The position numbers and the translations under genes are program-made. From Desulfatiglandales bacterium (GTDB taxonomy: Bacteria; Desulfobacterota; DSM-4660; Desulfatiglandales; Desulfatiglandaceae), in contig OY759599.1 in assembly GCA_963662465.1 (NCBI GenBank), positions 2,496,001 to 2,560,000 of the forward strand: DNA of 64,000 nt. Direction: 5' to 3'. This document shows positions 4,588 to 16,631 of this stretch, one piece after another (the first letter of the stretch is position 1; each line of letters begins with the position of its first letter). The notes beneath the pieces were generated by a model, which saw only the letters and a program-made list of their open reading frames with translations, was not told the origin of the DNA and did not search any database.

Positions 4588-4695
4588 AGCATCTAAGCGT
4601 CAGGTCGGACCAACTTAACAACCTGATAAAACGATGAATATGGAATTATGAAACGCATAAGTCTAAATGTTGTGGGGTTGTATAACCCATCAAAA

Positions 4696-6250
4696 TTAAA
4701 AGGCGTTTTCGGTAAACAAGAATGCATTATGAACATTCATAACTTGAATCCAAGGTAAGTCAAATGTTTGGCCGTTGGCTAATTCAAAGGGACTTTTATG
4801 AGCATTTTTTGCGCCAGGTAAAAATGGGACAAAATTCCTGATAGTCGCATGTGCTCGAAAGAAAAGACTTGCCCATTTCTTATCTCGAAAACTCTCAATT
4901 TGTTTTAGTTTACGTTTGATTCCTTTTAAATAATTGTCAACAATGGAGGTTGTTTGTTTTATCCCATTTCTATTTTTATGAGAGGTATAATGAGTGGCAT
5001 TTTCTTTTAATTCTACTACCCTCTTTTTTAGTAATGGATGAGAAAATGCATCGTCATCTAATGCCTTAATCTTTACTTCCAAGTTAACTTTAGATGTGGA
5101 TGTTTTCAAAACTTTCTTAAATTTTTTATAAAGCTTGTCCACTTCTTGGTCGGTACATTTTGATTCTTTTTGATATTTTGATAGTGCATCGTAGAAGTTT
5201 TTCAAACAATGACGATGGCAATATCCGACCCAAATGTTATGGAATACGGTCTTGATAGCATTGGTTGAGGCTTTCCACTTATCTTTTGTTACACCAAGGA
5301 TTTTGAAGTCGATTTTTTGCAAAAAATCCTCAAATGAACCGCACAGGTTTTCTTCATCAACATGATCAACATAATCGGAGTGCCATACTAATAAATTTTC
5401 AGGATCGACCATAACTACAGAATAAGTTCTTAAATTTGGTTCTTTTTCAAAGCCCTCATCTTCCTGTAGATATCCTGAGCCTTTCACTCCTGCTCTTGTT
5501 AGTATTGTTGCAGGATGAAGTGTTCCTGCCCATCGATTCCAATTCAAGATGGTTTGTTTGCTTTTGACACTTTTTTTGCCAATAATTTTAAGGCTTTCGA
5601 TGGCTCCTTGAATGCTCGCATTAAAACGGTACATATTCCGAAATACGTGCCCAATAATCTCTATACCAAAATTCTTTTCCCTTGGGAGAAAGCTGGGAAC
5701 AAGAGAGAACTTTTGTTTGCACTTCCGGCATTGTATCATGCGGATTGGGAATGTCTGTTGTTCTCCTCCATTCATTATTGTTTTTCGAGGATTCCCGCGG
5801 AAACCAGATAAAATATATTCTTTAGGTCCAGAACATGTTGAATTATGGCCTGTGTGGTGATCATATTTATCGAGTTTATCTAATACTTCAATGCGAAACT
5901 TCTTACTATCTTTTACGAGAGCATGATAGCTTTCGGTGTTATTATAAGGAAAGATATATGTTTGATTTCCTCGTTTAGAAACAAGGTCTTCCATTTTCTT
6001 TTTTACATTTTCGATTATGGATTTATCAAAAGATTTTAACATCCCTATCTCAAATGCAATACTGATTGTACTATCACGACTTTTTACATTATTCAATTTT
6101 TTAGTAATATTACTTATCATTGAACGAATTGAATAAAAGATTCTAATTTTCTGTCGATCCCGTTGTGTTTTTGGAATGCTTTTTTTCCCTTTTATTGGCT
6201 TACAAATATCCCATAATTGACTTATTAACCTACCAAGTTCATCAATAAGA
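4696..6250 (-). pseudogene. IS-X transposase, C-terminal part (N-terminus at 15987-16240)
   Basis: Near-identical to 12269-14077. Confidence 0.9.
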
Positions 6251-6558
6251 CTTATCGTTCGCGTTTTAAATTTGCACTTCGATTAATTTCGAAATCTGGT
6301 AGCGGGTACCTCTCTTGGCAGGGGGAAAAGCTATTTCCGGAAAGCCTACCAGGAGTCTTTTTGAGCAACATGCATCCATGGGTTAGTAAAGCCTGAAAAA
6401 TAACACACGTCGAATATTGGAACAACACAATAGGGCAGAAAATGGAATGGATTGTGCGTAAAACACCATCGTTCCATATCTCCAACAATGATATGAATTG
6501 TCGTAAAATCTGTATTTCAATTGTGACAACCTATAAGGGCTATGACGATAACATTCTA

Positions 6559-6873
6559 CTATTGCATAACTTCTAAATTATCGCATATAGAAGCGCTAAG
6601 TCCAAAGTGTTTTAGAATTTCACGTTGCAATTGAGAAAGCGGGGTTAGATGTCTTATCACACTATCTCCTGTTTCAATTATCGTTAATGTAATTTTGCTG
6701 AAAGCATTTAATAGTTTCTCACACGTTGGATTGCTCGTAGCTTTCTTGGGATTTCCCAGGTGCAATCCAACAAGCTTTTCGTCACTTCTTGCTAATGAGC
6801 GGCGAACAACAAATTCAACCAGAGTAATTACCCTGACTCCTATCATCAGAAGATGCGTTATTCCTTTAACTTG
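6559..6873 (-). pseudogene. IS1634 transposase, C-terminal piece
   Basis: QVKGITHLLMIGVRVITLVEFVVRRSL joins in frame to APFYVKRED at 11855. Confidence 0.85.
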
Positions 6874-6963
6874 AAAGCATAGGAATTTCCATTTTTGATT
6901 TGGCATATCAAATAGTTGTTGCAGTGATGGCATTAAATGTGTCAAAAAAAGCACATTATGCAT

Positions 6964-7312
6964 ATGCCATCAAACCAAAAAATTGATAAGGAGACTTTCC
7001 GGACGATTTTTATTGATCATTGGGAATCATTCAAAGAGCATCATCCAGGGTATGATAATTCGCAATATGAAGATCCGGTTCAGAAAATGCTTGGTTGCGG
7101 CAAGGAAAGCGCCGGATATAGCGAGCACCGGTGTGTTTATTGCGGTGGTGATGTTCGCCGGATAGGTTTTAGTTGCAAGAGCTGTTTTTGTTTATCCTGC
7201 GCCAAGAAACATGTTGACGATTTTGTCAGTCAAGTGAGTAGGGTGCTTCATGGGGGCATGAATTACCGTCACATTGTTTTGACAATTCCCGAGCAACTGA
7301 GAATCGTTTTTT
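6964..7312 (+). pseudogene. IS91-family transposase, N-terminal zinc-binding part
   Basis: KMLGCG...CVYCG...SCKSCFCLSCA, YRHIVLTIP; interrupted at 7313. Confidence 0.85.
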
Positions 7313-7531
7313 CTACAGCGTCAGGATACGGTTGGATTCAATAAGCCATTGAATTAACGGTATTATCTTTGATATTTTTTTCATAATTGTACCACACAAA
7401 CGCTGGGAAACAAACCTTATATTTCAGTAACCACTTGATTTTATTGAATTGGAGGATTGACAAGCAATTGGCATTTTGATACATTTATTTGGAAATAGCC
7501 ACAGAAAACAAATAAATGTATCAGAGGTCAC

Positions 7532-8224
7532 ATGTTATCTCCTGAAGACTCCAAAAAGGCTTTACATAAATGGTTTAGGAAGAAATACATCGCAGATCTC
7601 AATCAGCTCTTCCATGTACTGAAAACAAGTTCTCGGATGAGTGTATTCCGGAGGCTTAAACTTATCGGATACTTGACAAGCTTTACGGATGCCGGTCGTT
7701 ACTACACCCTTGAGGATATTCCTTCGTTTGATTCTTGGGGTTTGTGGTTTTATCGGGGAATCGGCTTTTCAAAGGCCGGCACGCTAAAAGCGACTGTGGT
7801 GGAAATTGTGCATTTATCGAATGCCGGAATGACACCGAAAGAGCTGTTGCATTTGTTGAAGATTCGGATTCCCAACACGTTGCACAACACGCTTCATGGG
7901 CTGGTTCAATCCCAGCAGATAAGTCGGCACCGATCCGAAGGGCTTTCCTTATATACCAATGGAGATCCGGATAAAGGAAAAGTGCAAATAGCGGCGCGTC
8001 GCGTACATATACAAGAAGGGGTTCAAATTGTCGGGCCGGTCCCAATGGAAACGACCATTGCTGTTCTTGTGGAAGCGCTGAAGGCGGGCCAAGTTATTGT
8101 ATCTCAATCTGAAATAGCAACCCGCCTCGCCGTTCGGGGATTGGCCGTCACTGTCGATCAGGTGAACCGGATTTTTTCAGAACATGGCATTCAAGCAGAA
8201 AAAAAAACGTCAAGATTCCGCTGA
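7532..8224 (+). CDS. IS ORF A, putative DNA-binding N-terminal part of the transposase
   Basis: Inside the IR-bounded element; ends just after an A9 run. Confidence 0.7.
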   Translation: MLSPEDSKKALHKWFRKKYIADLNQLFHVLKTSSRMSVFRRLKLIGYLTSFTDAGRYYTLEDIPSFDSWGLWFYRGIGFSKAGTLKATVVEIVHLSNAGMTPKELLHLLKIRIPNTLHNTLHGLVQSQQISRHRSEGLSLYTNGDPDKGKVQIAARRVHIQEGVQIVGPVPMETTIAVLVEALKAGQVIVSQSEIATRLAVRGLAVTVDQVNRIFSEHGIQAEKKTSRFR

Positions 8225-8259
8225 AAACGCTGGTCTACCTAAGGCATCAGGCGCATCGT

Positions 8260-10122
8260 TTGAATGATAGTTGTTTTAAACAAGTGGTCGGGTTAGCGGA
8301 TATCGTTGTATCTGCTAAGGATGAGGTTGGGGTATGTGAACTCTGCAATGGACCGATGCGTGTACAAAAAACGTTTGTGCATGAAGGACGGACCATCGAG
8401 CATGGTACGTTTAATGTTAGGGAAACGGTACATGTATGTTCGGAGCGGTGCCGTAATGATGATGGGACATTGTTTACCAAGAGAGCAGAATCGGTCGTTC
8501 GGACCATTATGCCAAACGGCATTGTCGGTTATGACGTAATGGTTTATGTGGGTCTCAATAGGCTGCTCGGCTATAAACAGAGAGAGGAAATAAAAGCAGA
8601 ATTAAAGGAAAGGCACGGCATCAAATTGTCTTGCGGTGAGGTTAGCAATCTGACACGATACTTTTTGGAATACTTGCTCAGACTTCATCACGTGCGGGCT
8701 GAGCAATTGAAAGGGGTCCTGGAGGCGGATGGGGGTTGGCCGATGCAAGTGGATGCCACTGGAGAAGCCGGTCGAGGGACCCTATTTGTTGTGATGGCTG
8801 GTTGGAGAAAATGGGTGCTTGGCGCCTGGAAAATTTCAACTGAACGAGCCGATCTTTTGTTACCCTGCATGCGGGATACGGTCAGTCGATTCGGCCCGCC
8901 TTGCGGAGCCATGCGCGACTTGGGACGCGCGGTATCGCCGGCCATCGACGAACTCGTATCTGAGATGCAATTGGATATACCCGTGTTAGCTTTCCATCAA
9001 CACTTTCTTGCCGACATTGGTAAAGACCTTATAAAACCTGACCATTCCGCTTTGCGGGACCATTTCCGGCGTACAAAAGTACGACCTAAAATCAATAACT
9101 TAGTCCGTGAGATCGGGCGAGAGATAGGCTTTGAGATCAATGAAACACGGCAGGCGGTTCTGGATTGGCAAGAGAGGGATGACTATCGTCTCCCACCGGG
9201 ACGAGATGGTCTTGCCGTTGTACGAAACATAGCACAGTGGATAATCGACTATAAGGCAGATCTTTCAGGCCTGGATTTTCCTTTTGACAGACCGTATTTG
9301 AGTTTTTTCAACAGGTGTATGGTTGCTCTGCGAGCAATAGATGCATTTCTTCGCATTCCTCCGAATGATAAGCATGTTGTGCGCATGATTCGTCGGCTTA
9401 GGAGGATCGCTTCGAAGGTTTCTTGTGAAGTGCCCTTTCGTCAAACTGTCAAACAGTTGCACCGCCGTGCTGCTTTATTCGATGAGCTGCGAAATCAATT
9501 GCGGTTGGCAAAAGAACTCCCGGATAAGGAATCAATAGAAGACCTTAACGAGATGCGGTATCAGTTTGAAACATGGACGACTGCCCTTAAAGATCGCCGG
9601 CCAAAACGAGGCCCGGGAAAAGATATTCGGGAAGCTATTGATATTATAATCAAACATATTGACACGCATGGTGATAGTCTTTGGGGGCACAGCATATGTT
9701 TGCCGGAAAGAACAGGCGGCGGCATACGGCTTATGAGTCGAACCAACGAACTGCTCGAAAACTTCTTTGGAACAATGAAGCATGGAGAACGACGGCGCAG
9801 TGGACGGAAAAATCTTGGTCAGGATCTGGAACATCTACCGGCAGAAGCGGCTCTGGCATATAATCTGGAACACGCCGATTACGTCAATATAGTTTGTGGA
9901 TCGATCGATCAGCTTCCTCTTGCATTCGCGCAATTAGATATGGAAAACCGGAATAGGAAGAATAAATGGCTGCCTTCCCAAGAAATTGTGAATCTTAAAA
10001 AAGAGCTTCAGCTTTCTACAGCATCTCTATCGACAGCAGATAGACGTTTGGTTAGGACGGATCAGATGAATCATCGCATCAAGAAAGCAGCCAGTAGCCG
10101 TGCTCCTCGCACATTGCAGTGA
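8260..10122 (+). CDS. IS ORF B, DDE transposase
   Basis: MQVDATG, AMRDLG, FHQHFLADIG, RTNELLENFF motifs. Confidence 0.75.
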   Translation: MNDSCFKQVVGLADIVVSAKDEVGVCELCNGPMRVQKTFVHEGRTIEHGTFNVRETVHVCSERCRNDDGTLFTKRAESVVRTIMPNGIVGYDVMVYVGLNRLLGYKQREEIKAELKERHGIKLSCGEVSNLTRYFLEYLLRLHHVRAEQLKGVLEADGGWPMQVDATGEAGRGTLFVVMAGWRKWVLGAWKISTERADLLLPCMRDTVSRFGPPCGAMRDLGRAVSPAIDELVSEMQLDIPVLAFHQHFLADIGKDLIKPDHSALRDHFRRTKVRPKINNLVREIGREIGFEINETRQAVLDWQERDDYRLPPGRDGLAVVRNIAQWIIDYKADLSGLDFPFDRPYLSFFNRCMVALRAIDAFLRIPPNDKHVVRMIRRLRRIASKVSCEVPFRQTVKQLHRRAALFDELRNQLRLAKELPDKESIEDLNEMRYQFETWTTALKDRRPKRGPGKDIREAIDIIIKHIDTHGDSLWGHSICLPERTGGGIRLMSRTNELLENFFGTMKHGERRRSGRKNLGQDLEHLPAEAALAYNLEHADYVNIVCGSIDQLPLAFAQLDMENRNRKNKWLPSQEIVNLKKELQLSTASLSTADRRLVRTDQMNHRIKKAASSRAPRTLQ

Positions 10123-10173
10123 GGCTAAAGCTGCTGATGGATCCAACCGTATAATGACGCTTTAGCGTTTTTT

Positions 10174-11132
10174 ATAAGGCTCGAAATGATGGACGTTTGT
10201 TATCGGCTTTTATGAGATGCGGGTACGAATGTTTGGAGGATGTTGTCGGAACGGTTCTTCGGCGGAAACTGAAAATAGGAACGATCGTCGTTGTTCAAAC
10301 GCATGGTCGATCCGGTCATTATAATCCGCATTTGCATATCATCATGACAAGCGGTGGGATAAATGAAGATCTGTGCGGTTGGTTTGATTTAAGGTTCTTC
10401 AAGTATGAGATTATACATAAGAAATGGCAGTATCATCTATTCAGAATGCTCAAGTCCCATTTTAACAGCAGTGCGGTCGATAAACTTATTGATGAGCTGT
10501 GGAAAAAATACCCTAAAGGTTTGGTAGCCAATGTGAGCAAGGGTAATGTTCCTGAGACATGTGGGGGTCTGGCGCGATATTTGGCGAAATATGTTGCATC
10601 TCCTCCGATAGCTCTGAGACGGATAATCAGTTATGATGGCCAATATGTTACCTATTGGTACAATGATCACATGACAAAATCCAGGAAGGTTGAAACCGTG
10701 GAAGTGGATGTTTTTATCGGTCGAATGGTTCAACACATAATGCCCAAAGGGTTCCAGCGGGTTCGTTATTATGGGCTACAGGCTACGAAAACTTTTAAGA
10801 AATGGTCGGAAGTAATACGGAAAGGGATGAAGGCTTTGGGGCGTGGGATTAAAAGAACGTATCAAGTCGTAAAAGCGAAAAGATATCGAGAACGTTATAA
10901 GGAGATCAGCTCTCAAGATCCTTTTTTGTGTCGTTATTGTGGCCATGAAATGGTGCTATGGAAGATATGGCATCCAAAATATGGAGTTTTATATGACGAA
11001 TATGAAAACATCAAAAACGACAGGTACGGCACGGTTACAGGACAAAATGACAGCGGGGGTGGAAGGCGAGGACTTCCCGTTCGGCCCTCCTCCGGAGGAA
11101 TATCCTTACCGTTGTTCCCATTGCCGGCATGA
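10174..11132 (+). pseudogene. IS91-family transposase, catalytic part
   Basis: HUH motif NPHLH, Y2 motif YLAKY, PKGFQRVRYYG. Confidence 0.9.
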
Positions 11133-11283
11133 AATGAAGGTAAATGAAGCGATAATAGACGTCGAGATTGCAAAAGCAGAATATGAAGGAAGGAATGTGG
11201 AAGGCTTTATGCCCATTCTCGGTTGCCCTCAGTGCAATCGAGAAACAATGAAATATGCGCAAGGTAGAAAGCCCGCGCGTTAG
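11047..11283 (+). CDS. Small putative zinc-ribbon protein overlapping the IS91 tnp 3' end
   Basis: CSHC and CPQC pairs in 78 aa; stop codon lies in the ter-like hairpin. Confidence 0.45.
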   Translation: MTAGVEGEDFPFGPPPEEYPYRCSHCRHEMKVNEAIIDVEIAKAEYEGRNVEGFMPILGCPQCNRETMKYAQGRKPAR

Positions 11284-11295
11284 CGCGCTAAGTTC

Positions 11296-11854
11296 ATCCC
11301 CTGTTGCCACCCAGCGGGATACACATAGGTATACCAATCCAGGGGCTGATCAAAAGGCGTTTTGACGGCGATCCACCAATCTGCATTTTGACCTGCTTTG
11401 CTTTCCGGATCAAGGCTGATGGTGATGGATACCAGAGTGCCTGGCGGAACGACAATCGGTCCATCCGAGCCGTTGGCCTTAATGTCTAACGCGGGAATAA
11501 CAGGCTCGTTGATCGTAAAGGTGCGAAAATCGGAACACCTGAAATTGTTCGAATTTGTTCCACCGATTCCGGCGGGACCATACACGTTCACCCGCCACTT
11601 ATAAGAACTTCCGGTTGGTAAATTGAGGCCTGTGGGAAGGGTAAACGATGTCTCCCCACTATAGGGGGAATCATACCATCTGATTCCCGTAGTGTAATCC
11701 GTTATGCGCACTGAATAGCGGTAGCTCCCATCTCCCGGATCCCCTGTTACCCTGGCCCAGCTGAAAGAAGGGGTGAGTGTGTCAAAATACGCGTTGTCGG
11801 CAGGGACGCGGGAATCCGTTGAAAAGTCCGGCACGGGATTGTAGGCGTAATTTA
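11296..11854 (-). pseudogene. Internal fragment of an exported/surface protein gene carried beyond the IS91 ter-like end
   Basis: Frame open at both junctions; fibronectin-III-like stretch TPSFSW...YKWRVNV; lies inside the IS1634 gene. Confidence 0.7.
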
Positions 11855-12218
11855 ATCTTCCCTTTTGACGTAAAACGGGGCGATGTTTAGCCTACTTTTC
11901 AGCCGGTTAAATATTCGTTCAACCCGGTATTGTTTTCGATAAGACCTAACTACATCGATAAAATCAAGTCGCTCCCTTGATACATCTGTAACATAGGCCT
12001 TCCACCCATACTTCTTCTTCTCCGCATCTATTGCTTCTTTAATCCGTGTCACTTTTGTTATTTGATAACGTATTTTTTCTTCAATCTTTTTCTCTCTTTT
12101 GACACTCCCTCTACCTTTACCAATATATTTCGTTTTACTTTCTACTTCCCGCACATATTCATATTTGAGGAAATCTTTCACCCTATGTTTTTTCAAAATC
12201 GATTTTGCTGATTCTATT
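11855..12218 (-). pseudogene. IS1634 transposase, middle piece
   Basis: GWKAYVTD...YRKQYRVERIFNRLKS catalytic-E region. Confidence 0.85.
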
Positions 12219-12226
12219 AATTTTTC

Positions 12227-14232
12227 CGCATAAGTCTAAATGTTGTGGGGTTGTATAACCCATCAAAATTAAAAGGCGTTTTCGGTAAACAAGAATGCAT
12301 TATGAACATTCATAACTTGAATCCAAGGTAAGTCAAATGTTTGGCCGTTGGCTAATTCAAAGGGACTTTTATGAGCATTTTTTGCGCCAGGTAAAAATGG
12401 GACAAAATTCCTGATAGTCGCATGTGCTCGAAAGAAAAGACTTGCCCATTTCTTATCTCGAAAACTCTCAATTTGTTTTAGTTTACGTTTGATTCCTTTT
12501 AAATAATTGTCAACAATGGAGGTTGTTTGTTTTATCCCATTTCTATTTTTATGAGAGGTATAATGAGTGGCATTTTCTTTTAATTCTACTACCCTCTTTT
12601 TTAGTAATGGATGAGAAAATGCATCGTCATCTAATGCCTTAATCTTTACTTCCAAGTTAACTTTAGATGTGGATGTTTTCAAAACTTTCTTAAATTTTTT
12701 ATAAAGCTTGTCCACTTCTTGGTCGGTACATTTTGATTCTTTTTGATATTTTGATAGTGCATCGTAGAAGTTTTTCAAACAATGACGATGGCAATATCCG
12801 ACCCAAATGTTATGGAATACGGTCTTGATAGCATTGGTTGAGGCTTTCCACTTATCTTTTGTTACACCAAGGATTTTGAAGTCGATTTTTTGCAAAAAAT
12901 CCTCAAATGAACCGCACAGGTTTTCTTCATCAACATGATCAACATAATCGGAGTGCCATACTAATAAATTTTCAGGATCGACCATAACTACAGAATAAGT
13001 TCTTAAATTTGGTTCTTTTTCAAAGCCCTCATCTTCCTGTAGATATCCTGAGCCTTTCACTCCTGCTCTTGTTAGTATTGTTGCAGGATGAAGTGTTCCT
13101 GCCCATCGATTCCAGTTCAAGATGGTCTGTTTGCTTTTGACACTTTTTTTGCCAATAATTTTAAGGCTTTCGATGGCTCCTTGAATGCTCGCATTAAAAC
13201 GGTACATATTCCGAAATACGTGCCCAATAATCTCTATACCAAAATTCTTTTCCCTTGGGAGAAAGCTGGGAACAAGAGAGAACTTTTGTTTGCACTTCCG
13301 GCATTGTATCATGCGGATTGGGAATGTCTGTTGTTCTCCTCCATTCATTATTGTTTTTCGAGGATTCCCGCGGAAACCAGATAAAATATATTCTTTAGGT
13401 CCAGAACATGTTGAATTATGGCCTGTGTGGTGATCATATTTATCGAGTTTATCTAATACTTCAATGCGAAACTTCTTACTATCTTTTACGAGAGCATGAT
13501 AGCTTTCGGTGTTATTATAAGGAAAGATATATGTTTGATTTCCTCGTTTAGAAACAAGGTCTTCCATTTTCTTTTTTACATTTTCGATTATGGATTTATC
13601 AAAAGATTTTAACATCCCTATCTCAAATGCAATACTGATTGTACTATCACGACTTTTTACATTATTCAATTTTTTAGTAATATTACTTATCATTGAACGA
13701 ATTGAATAAAAGATTCTAATTTTCTGTCGATCCCGTTGTGTTTTTGGAATGCTTTTTTTCCCTTTTATTGGCTTACAAATATCCCATAATTGACTTATTA
13801 ACCTACCAAGTTCATCAATAAGAGCAGACAATGTTACATAAAAATATTGCAATGATTGAAACATCTCCCTTTCATTGATCCATGATCTGATGGCATTAAT
13901 GCATTTCTCAATTTCAAAGAAAATCTCAGGATACTGTTTTGGATCGTAATAACATTGTCTTGCAAGTCTGTTTTGAGCTTTGTCCAACATTGTCAAAGCT
14001 CTCTTAATATTATTAATCATGTGTAACCTCTCTAATTTAACATAGACTGTTGCACTATGATTATGCACACTTATCAAAAAAAGTCCCTAACTTTTTTCCG
14101 CTAAGGCGAATTCAGGAAAAAATGTTTGGCCTCACGAAATGCGCTTTGATTAGGATATTGATTCGGAACCGTTTAACAGATGAAATAATTTCAATATGTT
14201 AGAGTAAACCCCACAACATTTAGACTTATGCG
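12227..14232 (-). mobile_element. IS-X copy 2, intact 2006 bp
   Basis: 26-bp perfect IRs; 8-bp target duplication AATTTTTC (12219-12226 and 14233-14240). Confidence 0.95.
12269..14077 (-). CDS. IS-X transposase (Mutator/IS256-like, CxxH motif)
   Basis: LQEDEGF, VTKDKW, YCHRH, TTSIVDNY; sole long ORF of the element; alternative ATG at 14020. Confidence 0.75.
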   Translation of the reverse strand: MISVHNHSATVYVKLERLHMINNIKRALTMLDKAQNRLARQCYYDPKQYPEIFFEIEKCINAIRSWINEREMFQSLQYFYVTLSALIDELGRLISQLWDICKPIKGKKSIPKTQRDRQKIRIFYSIRSMISNITKKLNNVKSRDSTISIAFEIGMLKSFDKSIIENVKKKMEDLVSKRGNQTYIFPYNNTESYHALVKDSKKFRIEVLDKLDKYDHHTGHNSTCSGPKEYILSGFRGNPRKTIMNGGEQQTFPIRMIQCRKCKQKFSLVPSFLPREKNFGIEIIGHVFRNMYRFNASIQGAIESLKIIGKKSVKSKQTILNWNRWAGTLHPATILTRAGVKGSGYLQEDEGFEKEPNLRTYSVVMVDPENLLVWHSDYVDHVDEENLCGSFEDFLQKIDFKILGVTKDKWKASTNAIKTVFHNIWVGYCHRHCLKNFYDALSKYQKESKCTDQEVDKLYKKFKKVLKTSTSKVNLEVKIKALDDDAFSHPLLKKRVVELKENATHYTSHKNRNGIKQTTSIVDNYLKGIKRKLKQIESFRDKKWASLFFRAHATIRNFVPFLPGAKNAHKSPFELANGQTFDLPWIQVMNVHNAFLFTENAF

Positions 14233-15653
14233 AATTTTTCTCTTTCTTTGATCTGCCTTTTCCCCGGGCCTCTTGGTGGTGTCAGAGCATATAATTTTTC
14301 CTCGGCGCTTTTAAGCCGTCGTTCCAATCCCAGTTCTTTTTGCTTTTCATACGCTGGTGATTTTACAATCAATACGCGTTCCTTCCATTTCAGCACTTTT
14401 CCATTTATTTCACCAGATTGGTTACGCTCTATCTCATACCCTTTTGCTTTCAGTTCCTCTTGACCTTTATCGTCTTGGACGATGTACTTTATCAACTCGT
14501 TCTTTTTGTCTTTCAAATTTCCTTCATCTATCCATTTCTCCATATATTCTGGGGTTTTCCCAGTATTAGGCAATGGACATAAATAATGTCCTTCCGCTTT
14601 TTCCTTAATGTGTAAACGATTTTCAAGAGAACTCAGTTTGCAATCGCCCACATAAAGGACACCTTGTTTCTGGAGCATAGAGTGAATGCGACTTATGATA
14701 GGTGCATACAATTTGTCATCGGCCATTTGCCCTGGAACAACATCCGTGGCTAACGGCATCCCAAGAGGATCCAGCGAACCCGTCATGATTTTTATTTGCG
14801 GTCTATTGGGGTCGTCTTTACTAACACCAAATTGGAATATCCCACCTTCAACTGTTTTGTGGTAGCCGGATACAGTCGTAGCATCAACCCTGACAGTTTC
14901 TTCCGGCAACTCATATGCTTCAATCGTATTGCCACTTATTCTCTCTTCAACTTTTCTCCAAATATCATTATCGCTTAAATACCTGGCAAGATTAGCTAAA
15001 CGATCGTCTGTAAAATCATTTTCGGAGATTATCAATCCTGTTAATTCGATTAAGGTATGCCGCATTCCAGATACATATTCCCGAACAACTACTTTGCGAT
15101 GGTCTCCCTCCGATAACATATATGCCAACCATATAACAGCCGTCCATCCCCAGCTCAAATCTCTTTGGTTCTTTTGAATTGGGATTTGTTGGTCTATAGC
15201 TTCTTGTATACCCATTTTCACCATGGCCTTTATCAATAGGGGTATATCGTCAACTCTTTCTGCTGTAACGTTAATCTTTTTGACCTTTTTCCTTTTGTTT
15301 GCAATGTGAGAGGCGCCATTATCCGATGATAGATTTACCTCACGCTTTTTCTTAGCAGTTTTCGTTTTATTTGATTTTTGCTTTTTTTTTCGTTTCCTTA
15401 CAGGTGCTGATTTTTTACCTTCTTCCAACCTGTTTCGTTGAAGCTTTGGGATTTTCTGCCGATCATTCTTCTGACCGAAAGGTCTGGGTTGATTTTCAGA
15501 TTGACCGGTTTGTTGATTTGATGATGCACCGGCATTTATATTATTTCCAGTACCTGCTGAAATAGGTGATGCCTGCACCTTTGAAAAACTGCAAAACCAA
15601 ACCAAAAAACACACTGATGCGAAAATGAACACATGCGTCACATGTCGGTTCAT
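14233..15653 (-). pseudogene. IS1634 transposase, N-terminal piece with a long extension
   Basis: ERVDDIPLL, VRVDATT, GVSKDDPNRPQIK, YVGDCKL; the three pieces total 2100 nt (699 aa). Confidence 0.85.
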
Positions 15654-16631
15654 ATAGTTCCCCTGTTATTTCAAGTGGTTGTAATGTTGGGAAACTAATA
15701 TAATACAAACAGCTGTGAATGTCCATCGTTATTCCAGCATGTTATCGTATTGTTTTTGAATCCATTAAAAAATAATAATAGCTATGAATTACGACAATTT
15801 CAAATCAATCTATCAAGGCGCTCGTTCCTGTTCCCCTTATGGGCCTGTATCCTTACCGGGGATGTACTACCAATGCCTCTGATATCGCATTTTATCGTGG
15901 AGATGTTGTTCCGCCAAGTGAGTGCTGCCTGCCTCCTCGGCAAAATTTGCAGAACTTATTTTTAAAACGCGAACGATAAGATAAGAGCAGACAATGTTAC
16001 ATAAAAATATTGCAATGATTGAAACATCTCCCTTTCATTGATCCATGATCTGATGGCATTAATGCATTTCTCAATTTCAAAGAAAATCTCAGGATACTGT
16101 TTTGGATCGTAATAACATTGTCTTGCAAGTCTGTTTTGAGCTTTGTCCAACATTGTCAAAGCTCTCTTAATATTATTAATCATGTGCAACCTCTCTAATT
16201 TAACATAGACTGTTGCACTATGATTATGCACACTTATCAAAAAAAGTCCCTAACTTTTTTCCGCTAAGGCGAATTCAGGAAAAAATGTTTGGCCTCACGA
16301 AATGCGCTTTGATTAGGATATTGATTCGGAACCGTTTAACAGATGAAATAATTTCAATATGTTAGAGTAAACCCCACAACATTTAGACTTATGCGCAAAA
16401 TTGGATAGGGATACAATCGTTTCAGGTAAGAAAACCATGCCTTGAAACAGAATTAAACAGTCTTAGTTTTTGCCTATAGAATAATATAAACCGTTGTATT
16501 TGACGGTGAAATGTCCATTTTTAGGTCCTAAAATAGACTGAAATAACGAGGCCTATACAACTGACTTCATTGCAAAATTTTTTCTATCCACATCATACAT
16601 AAAGCAAGAAGAACAAAACCGAACCAATACC

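Follow-up and report, generated by a model that had tools for sequence, protein, structure and literature searches.

We analysed a 64,000-nt stretch of the genome of a Desulfatiglandales bacterium (GCA_963662465.1, contig OY759599.1, positions 2,496,001 to 2,560,000; the window), in which an IS91-family element followed by 559 bp of other DNA interrupts an IS1634-type insertion sequence (IS). Coordinates without a prefix are window positions, and G000 is the host genome (8.16 Mb, one contig). The recipient, labelled from weak Pfam matches (DDE_Tnp_1/DUF4277) and from its naming in the initial annotation, spans 6251-15980 and is bounded by a 6-bp duplication, ATAAGA. Its 3' part lies at 6251..6873 on the minus strand, and its sequence resumes at the target base (11855..12226, minus strand). 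The intervening features lie on the plus strand. The host target TAACTTG (6867..6873) abuts the origin (ori) end, AAAGCATAGGAATTTCCATTTT (6874..6895), which matches the ori motif of the E. coli and Shigella elements. There follow the 5' part of the transposase gene, encoding the zinc-binding domain PF14319 (6937..7312), the 3' part with the catalytic motifs and PF04986 (10174..11132), a small conserved open reading frame (ORF; 11047..11283) and the terminus (ter) end (11268..11295), made up of AAAGCCC, a 5-bp hairpin and the cleavage site TAAGTTC. The gene is split in this copy by a nested, unrelated 2853-bp IS (7313..10165). Behind ter lie the 559 bp (11296..11854), a gene fragment on the minus strand. 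As the initial annotation had proposed, deleting 6874-11854 restores an open IS1634 frame with no internal stop and the junction KRED|QVKG, and no target is duplicated, empty IS1634 copies reading TAACTTG^ATCTTCC. The hairpin and GTTC that it had placed near 11274-11295 correspond to a stem at 11275-11279/11284-11288 and GTTC at 11292-11295.

A BLAST search of G000 with window positions 6000-12500 revealed 13 full copies, one internally deleted mini copy of 305 bp and five ori-side fragments. The element is 1561 bp long, equal to 6874-11295 once the nested IS is discounted, and the window copy without that IS departs from a nine-copy consensus at 2 positions out of 1561. All 13 full copies start at the base equal to 6874, with AAAGC and the shared left end AAAGCATAGGAATTT directly after the host target, and finish at the base equal to 11295 with the hairpin and TAAGTTC. 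The 559 bp are not a fixed part of the element and are present in the window copy only; neither of the contrary outcomes that had been named beforehand, a fixed 559 bp or other limits in other copies, occurred. The two ends differ, and terminal inverted repeats are absent. Folding of the ter hairpin alone is no better than that of shuffled sequences (z -0.76), so the assignment of ter rests on its conservation in relatives, across which the stems covary.

The host target is TAANTYN, mostly TAACTTG. The tetranucleotide before ori is CTTG in 8 of the 13 copies, the rest having TTTA (twice), TTCA, CTCG and GTTC. TAANTYN also describes 100 ori matches in related loci (TAACTTG 30, TAAGTTC 14, TAATTTA 11), with T at the second tetranucleotide position in 99. 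Empty sites in repeats and paralogues place insertion at CTTG^A or CTCG^A with no target duplication. A register shifted by one base, TTNA|T, had been suggested at first and did not hold: G000 1590105-1596398 reads CTTG|AAAGC...GTTC|T, and an empty site of another genome reads TAATTTA^T. Since the right flank begins with T in these cases, the first A must be counted as part of the element, which gives TAANTYN^(A/T) as the site.

The site within IS1634 is occupied in three of eight IS1634 copies, in two sequence variants that differ 12 bp from it, and is a real hot site, independently targeted in both. Gene conversion, considered as a way for the element to have passed from one IS1634 copy to another, is unlikely for the copy at 7213112, where variant bases particular to that copy are retained 12 bp away. 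On a target-site matrix built from 13 G000 insertion sites this is the top-scoring position within IS1634, the site itself having belonged to the training set. The flanks are collinear with an empty site or paralogue in five of the eight checkable copies; another of the eight is the window copy, and two (1704164 and 7676755) have unrelated sequence behind ter. At G000 1704164-1705724, G000 7676755-7678315 and the related locus L040 the sequence after ter is not continuous with the ori-side flank, and in two cases, G000 1705724 (another TAACTTG^A) and L040, it restarts at a target-type site.

Uninterrupted copies encode a protein of 435-444 aa with PF14319 and PF04986 as its only domains, an HUH motif in the form HLH and a Y2 motif, YLAKY. 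It scores 216.8 bits on NF033538 (cut-off 125) and only 34.7 bits on the ISCR profile NF052416 (cut-off 925), and is about 31% identical to the enterobacterial enzymes. The element is real and belongs to the IS91 family. It shares with IS91, IS801 and IS1294 a Y2 HUH transposase with a zinc domain, the absence of inverted repeats and of target duplication and a length of about 1.5 kb, as well as a CTTG/GTTC-type target by ori, an ATAGGAA(A/T)TT ori motif, a palindrome by the ter cleavage site and capture of DNA past ter (PMC13181058, PMC3189936 and PMC9676059). Unlike in those elements, the target here extends to TAANTYN.

The ori motif, a few bases from the target (ATAGGAATTT here, ATAGGAAATT in the Shigella element L036 and the E. 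coli element L037), comes after the host target, upstream of the transposase and on the coding strand, whereas L036 and L037 have it, as GTTC or GGAC|ACGTATAGGAAATTG, on the strand opposite to the transposase and downstream of that gene. In the classical layout the gene has ori on its 3' side and ter on its 5' side (PMC9676059), the bottom strand moves and bottom-strand circles are the working intermediate (PMC13181058). The element is a variant of the family, since its ori is 5' on the coding strand, unlike that of the four characterised members; a 3' ori is a trait of those four and not part of the family definition. As the ori-like end lies upstream on the coding strand, this strand is predicted from the sequence to be the one that moves.

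The reversed polarity suggested in the initial annotation proved to be widespread. The position of ori and ter relative to the gene was scored in 160 distinct loci gathered by genome, metagenome and plasmid searches, after two duplicate rows had been dropped. The loci are not independent, as a single Ca. Electrothrix laxa chromosome supplies 11 of them, and the hosts, where a title is given, are mostly relatives of sulfate reducers, plus a Clostridiales, a Pirellulales and archaeal metagenome-assembled genomes. Among 133 loci of at least 34% identity, 117 have ori upstream on the coding strand and/or ter downstream (66 called by both ends, 51 by one), one is classical and 15, mostly truncated, are uncalled. 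The reversed loci span 34-95% identity. Of the 27 loci below 34% identity, two show the classical layout, and the ends of the remaining 25 are of different types. In the lone classical case above this limit, L075, both ori and ter are of the clade's type but the gene cassette between them is inverted, an arrangement confirmed by a second contig with a different flank. In two quick tree searches, one with 66 of 127 rows and the other with 26, L075 falls within the reversed group at 97% in one tree and near its base, unresolved, in the other, so that it could represent a second flip or the ancestral state. An approximately unbiased (AU) test rejects a single clade (p 0.0001); one or two flips are both possible, because the set tested included L120, labelled by one weak ori match.

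Parallels to this layout are found among Helitrons. Helitron1/Helraiser elements likewise move the plus (coding) strand, carry a 3' hairpin terminator and capture 3' flanks by bypass (PMC4778049, PMC5876387). They differ in having a Rep fused to a Pif1 helicase, 5'-TC...CTRR-3' ends and an AT or TT target, whereas the element here is bacterial, has no helicase domain, runs AAAGC...GTTC and targets TAANTYN; the resemblance is one of layout, not of membership. In Helitron2/Helentron elements with inverted ORFs (FoHeli3 versus FoHeli4/5; PMC5148889, PMC11417382) the transposase ORF flips relative to fixed ends, as between the clade and L075. Those elements are eukaryotic, and while the flip is described there, we found no such report for IS91 in the portions of the literature consulted. 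ISCR elements share rolling-circle capture of flanks past ter but have Y1 enzymes (PMC10288648), in contrast to the two tyrosines of YLAKY. Capture past ter by IS91 elements and ORF reversal in Helitron2/Helentron are thus known. Neither an IS91 element with an upstream ori nor a large clade of reversed polarity was found in the literature searched, including the available portions of PMC12772301 and PMC10288648; a prior mention is possible, and reversed IS91 polarity appears to be new.

The GC skew of G000, which flips near 1.78 and 5.76 Mb, gives an independent indication of which strand moves. The coding (ori-to-ter) strand lies on the G-rich strand in 12 of the 13 copies (binomial p 0.003), which are co-oriented with the leading strand, as well as in five of six fragments and at the donor site described below. 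In a second genome (G432) 13 of 14 exact ori matches fit the same pattern; there the sign of the skew was estimated, noisily, from a sample of 20 pieces of 20 kb each. IS91 genes are reported to face against the replication fork (PMC3971601), whereas the element here faces with it, and IS608 enters the lagging-strand template (PMC5027513). Because opposite gene orientation combines with opposite polarity, the same strand, the lagging-strand template, is entered here and in IS91. Selection for co-oriented transcription could contribute to the bias. The region at about 2.46-2.55 Mb of G000, which includes the window, has weakly positive skew inside a negative replichore and is possibly an inversion or island; no bounding inverted repeat was found around it.

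Further indirect signs of rolling-circle-type movement, besides this bias and the capture considered below, are tandems in which ter is joined to ori (G000 1051302, L056, L062 and L090). At G000 1050997-1052862 the internally deleted mini copy is fused in this way with a full copy. Non-autonomous ori-ter minis of 90-225 bp were seen at L087, L090, L093, L097, L105, L114, L203, L206, L208, L210, L212 and L214. The ori pattern was found in 12 of 401 genomes searched, one of which (G374) holds 27 matches; none of the 23 inspected pattern loci outside G000 has a transposase inside 1.5 kb, and several are 90-225 bp minis. A solo ter-like site (31.6 bits) lies at G000 3702293 on the minus strand with no ori or transposase nearby.

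The initial annotation had taken the 559 bp for foreign DNA. They are host DNA, identical at 558 of 559 positions to G000 2720329-2720887 (read as 2720887-2720329), 213 kb away, in the interior of an intact gene that encodes a 654-aa protein with Ig-like domains. A donor locus with the element beside the parent gene had been anticipated; the parent gene is there, but no element stands beside it today. The donor start reads TAACTTG^ATCCCC and the donor end GTAATTTA^TGG. On the target matrix, whose 13 training sites do not include the donor, the start scores 11.9, a value matched by 2 of 300,000 random positions, and is the top site within 3.9 kb; the end scores 8.5 (3.5e-4). The last 33 bases of the fragment, AAAAGTCCG...GGCGTAATTTA (11822..11854, plus strand), resemble the ter of relatives (AAAAGTCCGCCCGAAGGGCGCTAATTTA), and TAATTTA is both the natural ter end in at least seven relatives and a verified target. 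On a two-block ter model trained on 57 ters of other genomes this cryptic ter scores 26.9 bits. Of about 16.3 million positions 18 reach that score. True ters account for 14 of these and the cryptic ter, in its two copies, for two more, with two other sites making up the rest; outside the element copies the cryptic ter is one of the three best-scoring sites in G000. Over 20 kb of donor strand its nearest competitor has 16 bits.

Short-read contigs from runs X2 and X3, which are one sample and possibly the genome's own source, contain the 559 bp as one piece at a depth of 95.8 and 100.8, against 33.7-44.5 in the flanks (2-3x), with branches to both donor flanks, to ter and to IS1634. These contigs support the duplication; runs X1 (share 0.07) and X4 do not cover the donor junction. 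An origin of the fragment in a process unrelated to the transposase, such as illegitimate recombination, or in an assembly error could draw on its being a single case and on the possible identity of that sample with the genome's source. Both ends lie at transposase-type sites, junction homology does not exceed a few bases, and the doubled depth and four branches are those of a true duplicate; we regard such an origin as largely refuted and very improbable.

The ends, target, copy number and motif polarity, together with a duplicate that runs from a target site to a ter-like end and has an intact, empty donor, agree with the 3' capture past ter that the initial annotation envisaged. We think it probable that an element was for a time inserted in the donor gene and captured the 559 bp from there by one-ended rolling-circle read-through. 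The transposase would nick at the junction of target and ori, as HUH chemistry (PMC5714925) and the IS91 precedent suggest. The coding strand would then be displaced 5' to 3' in the direction of ter; once cut at TAAGTTC, it would be joined into single-stranded DNA at TAANTYN on the lagging-strand template. The element would first have entered TAACTTG^ATCCCC of the donor gene; on its next move ter would have been missed, with a stop 559 nt later at the cryptic ter and a landing in the IS1634 hot site. With the element positioned at TAACTTG of the donor, a termination failure would be expected to yield this composite. Such failure occurs in 1-14% of events in characterised members (PMC13181058), and IS801 captures in vivo extend 290-1431 nt past ter (PMC3189936).

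Several observations weigh against read-through from the donor. The donor carries no element, the point that plain read-through must explain; in IS801 captures the donor kept its element (PMC3189936). Most simply, it may have been left empty if the second move took place while the element sat in one strand only, with repair copying the empty strand, or if the element left from a sister chromosome. A site at +330 scores 8.65 and is equally target-like, yet was passed. The cryptic ter lacks a stable hairpin, in line with the hairpin-free surrogate ends known for IS801 and Helraiser (PMC3189936, PMC4778049), and the optional one-base gap of the ter model was allowed post hoc, once the cryptic ter was known. 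By rough arithmetic, few insertions, about 1e-4 per site, would have a ter-like sequence of such strength in the next 559 nt. No ori at the donor was found among the 23 of 33 loose contig ends listed, in contigs only. Second captures were seen neither in the other 12 G000 copies nor in the four of 11 G432 right flanks tested. The window copy is also the sole exception to the strand bias, although the local skew is weakly positive; its orientation may reflect inversion of this region or transport within IS1634. Separately, the contigs, which drop rare forms, list neither a ter-to-ori nor a fragment-to-ori circle joint, and the six ori-only fragments examined have no ter-like ends and lend no support to early termination. 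Two further candidate captures were rejected: a 10-bp micro-capture in L044, which empty sites show to be a normal insertion (L040 lacks the 10 bp), and an ori-side capture at G000 8150016, where the insertion lies within a duplicated segment.

The empty donor would need no loss of an element if host DNA had been captured without an ori. With the element resident in IS1634, the transposase would nick the donor TAACTTG^A as though it were ori, use the resident ter (TAAGTTC^A) as target, copy the host strand to the cryptic ter and reseal it; this single event would yield both the composite and the intact donor, with the same polarity as read-through. Ter-type sites are indeed common targets (14 of 100 ori matches follow TAAGTTC) and ter|ori tandems exist; the same IS1634 variant bears a plain element at G000 1704164, and ter is joined to a different target-type site at G000 1705724 and in L040. 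However, the donor start has no ori motif (-38.5 bits, against 35.9), ori is reported to be essential for IS91 (PMC3189936), the ter-side rearrangements could also result from two copies recombining or from slippage at 7-bp repeats, and the literature consulted offers no precedent. We consider such a capture possible but unlikely.

Known steps would also account for the empty donor if the composite had formed by ordinary read-through in a sister lineage with an occupied donor and had then been transferred horizontally, either as a circle or carried by IS1634, or if the donor allele had been restored by recombination. The window copy runs against the replichore bias, as an IS1634 passenger could, and this IS1634 has its own 6-bp duplication. 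Against this, identity at 558 of 559 positions requires a very close relative, none of the 30 relatives searched has the donor region at more than 74% identity, and local skew may explain the orientation. An origin elsewhere seems improbable, and read-through from a transient insertion in this genome is the reading we prefer.

The small ORF beside ter encodes about 78 aa (putative start) with a CxxC...CPxC pattern, overlaps the end of the transposase gene and has its stop codon in the ter loop. It is present in 91 of 102 close loci having a 3' end and in none of 27 distant loci, with its four Cys invariant in 51 rows. An Atlas search returned unnamed clusters and one weak zinc-ribbon lead. The accessory ORF of the Shigella element lies upstream and bears no BLAST likeness to this downstream Cys4 protein. 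By position the ORF recalls Orf121, which sharpens ter cleavage in IS91 (PMC13181058), and a role at ter is a guess from this analogy. Neither a viral relative of the element, in a viral collection search, nor a promoter, in a scan of the ori end, was found.

Relatives of the transposase finish C-terminally in QLSLF-like residues (alignment A1), which we take to fit the sliding-clamp binding motif. An IS91 peptide binds the sliding clamp (PMC3971601). The closest plasmid-borne relative, on a Piscirickettsia salmonis plasmid (L035), has 40% identity. Other IS91-type transposases with different ends lie at G000 4412355-4425229, 3288828, 3339700, 3354083, 3747477, 6746979 and 6789544, eight of them in tandem with a period of 1609. 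Their ends, we assume, resemble integron attC sites. The window itself holds a four-layer nest (4654-16400): a 2-kb IS (about 25 copies) contains IS1634, which contains a second copy of the 2-kb IS and the IS91-family element, which in turn contains the 2853-bp IS. The latter has inverted ends of about 25 bp, an 8-bp target duplication, three genome copies and ORFs of 230 and 620 aa, for which no family match was found in Pfam or NCBIfam.

Capture by IS91-type elements is annotated on the assumption that ter and the captured DNA lie upstream of the transposase. In a large clade, which comprises at least 120 protein clusters with 63% identity or above, ter is downstream; because annotation presumes an upstream ter, the clade's cargo and its many 90-225 bp minis would be sought on the wrong side. 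It is rare for one genome to contain captured DNA together with its precise chromosomal source and a ter look-alike, and this locus makes it possible to test directly both how ter is recognised and why the donor is empty. More tentatively still than for capture without an ori at this one locus, we entertain the doubtful idea that a widespread bacterial clade of Helitron-like polarity copies host DNA, from a bare target to a ter look-alike, into a resident element, the donor never being occupied and no ori being used, with a small zinc protein encoded beside ter tuning the process. If true, fragments of genes could be captured with no trace left where they came from.

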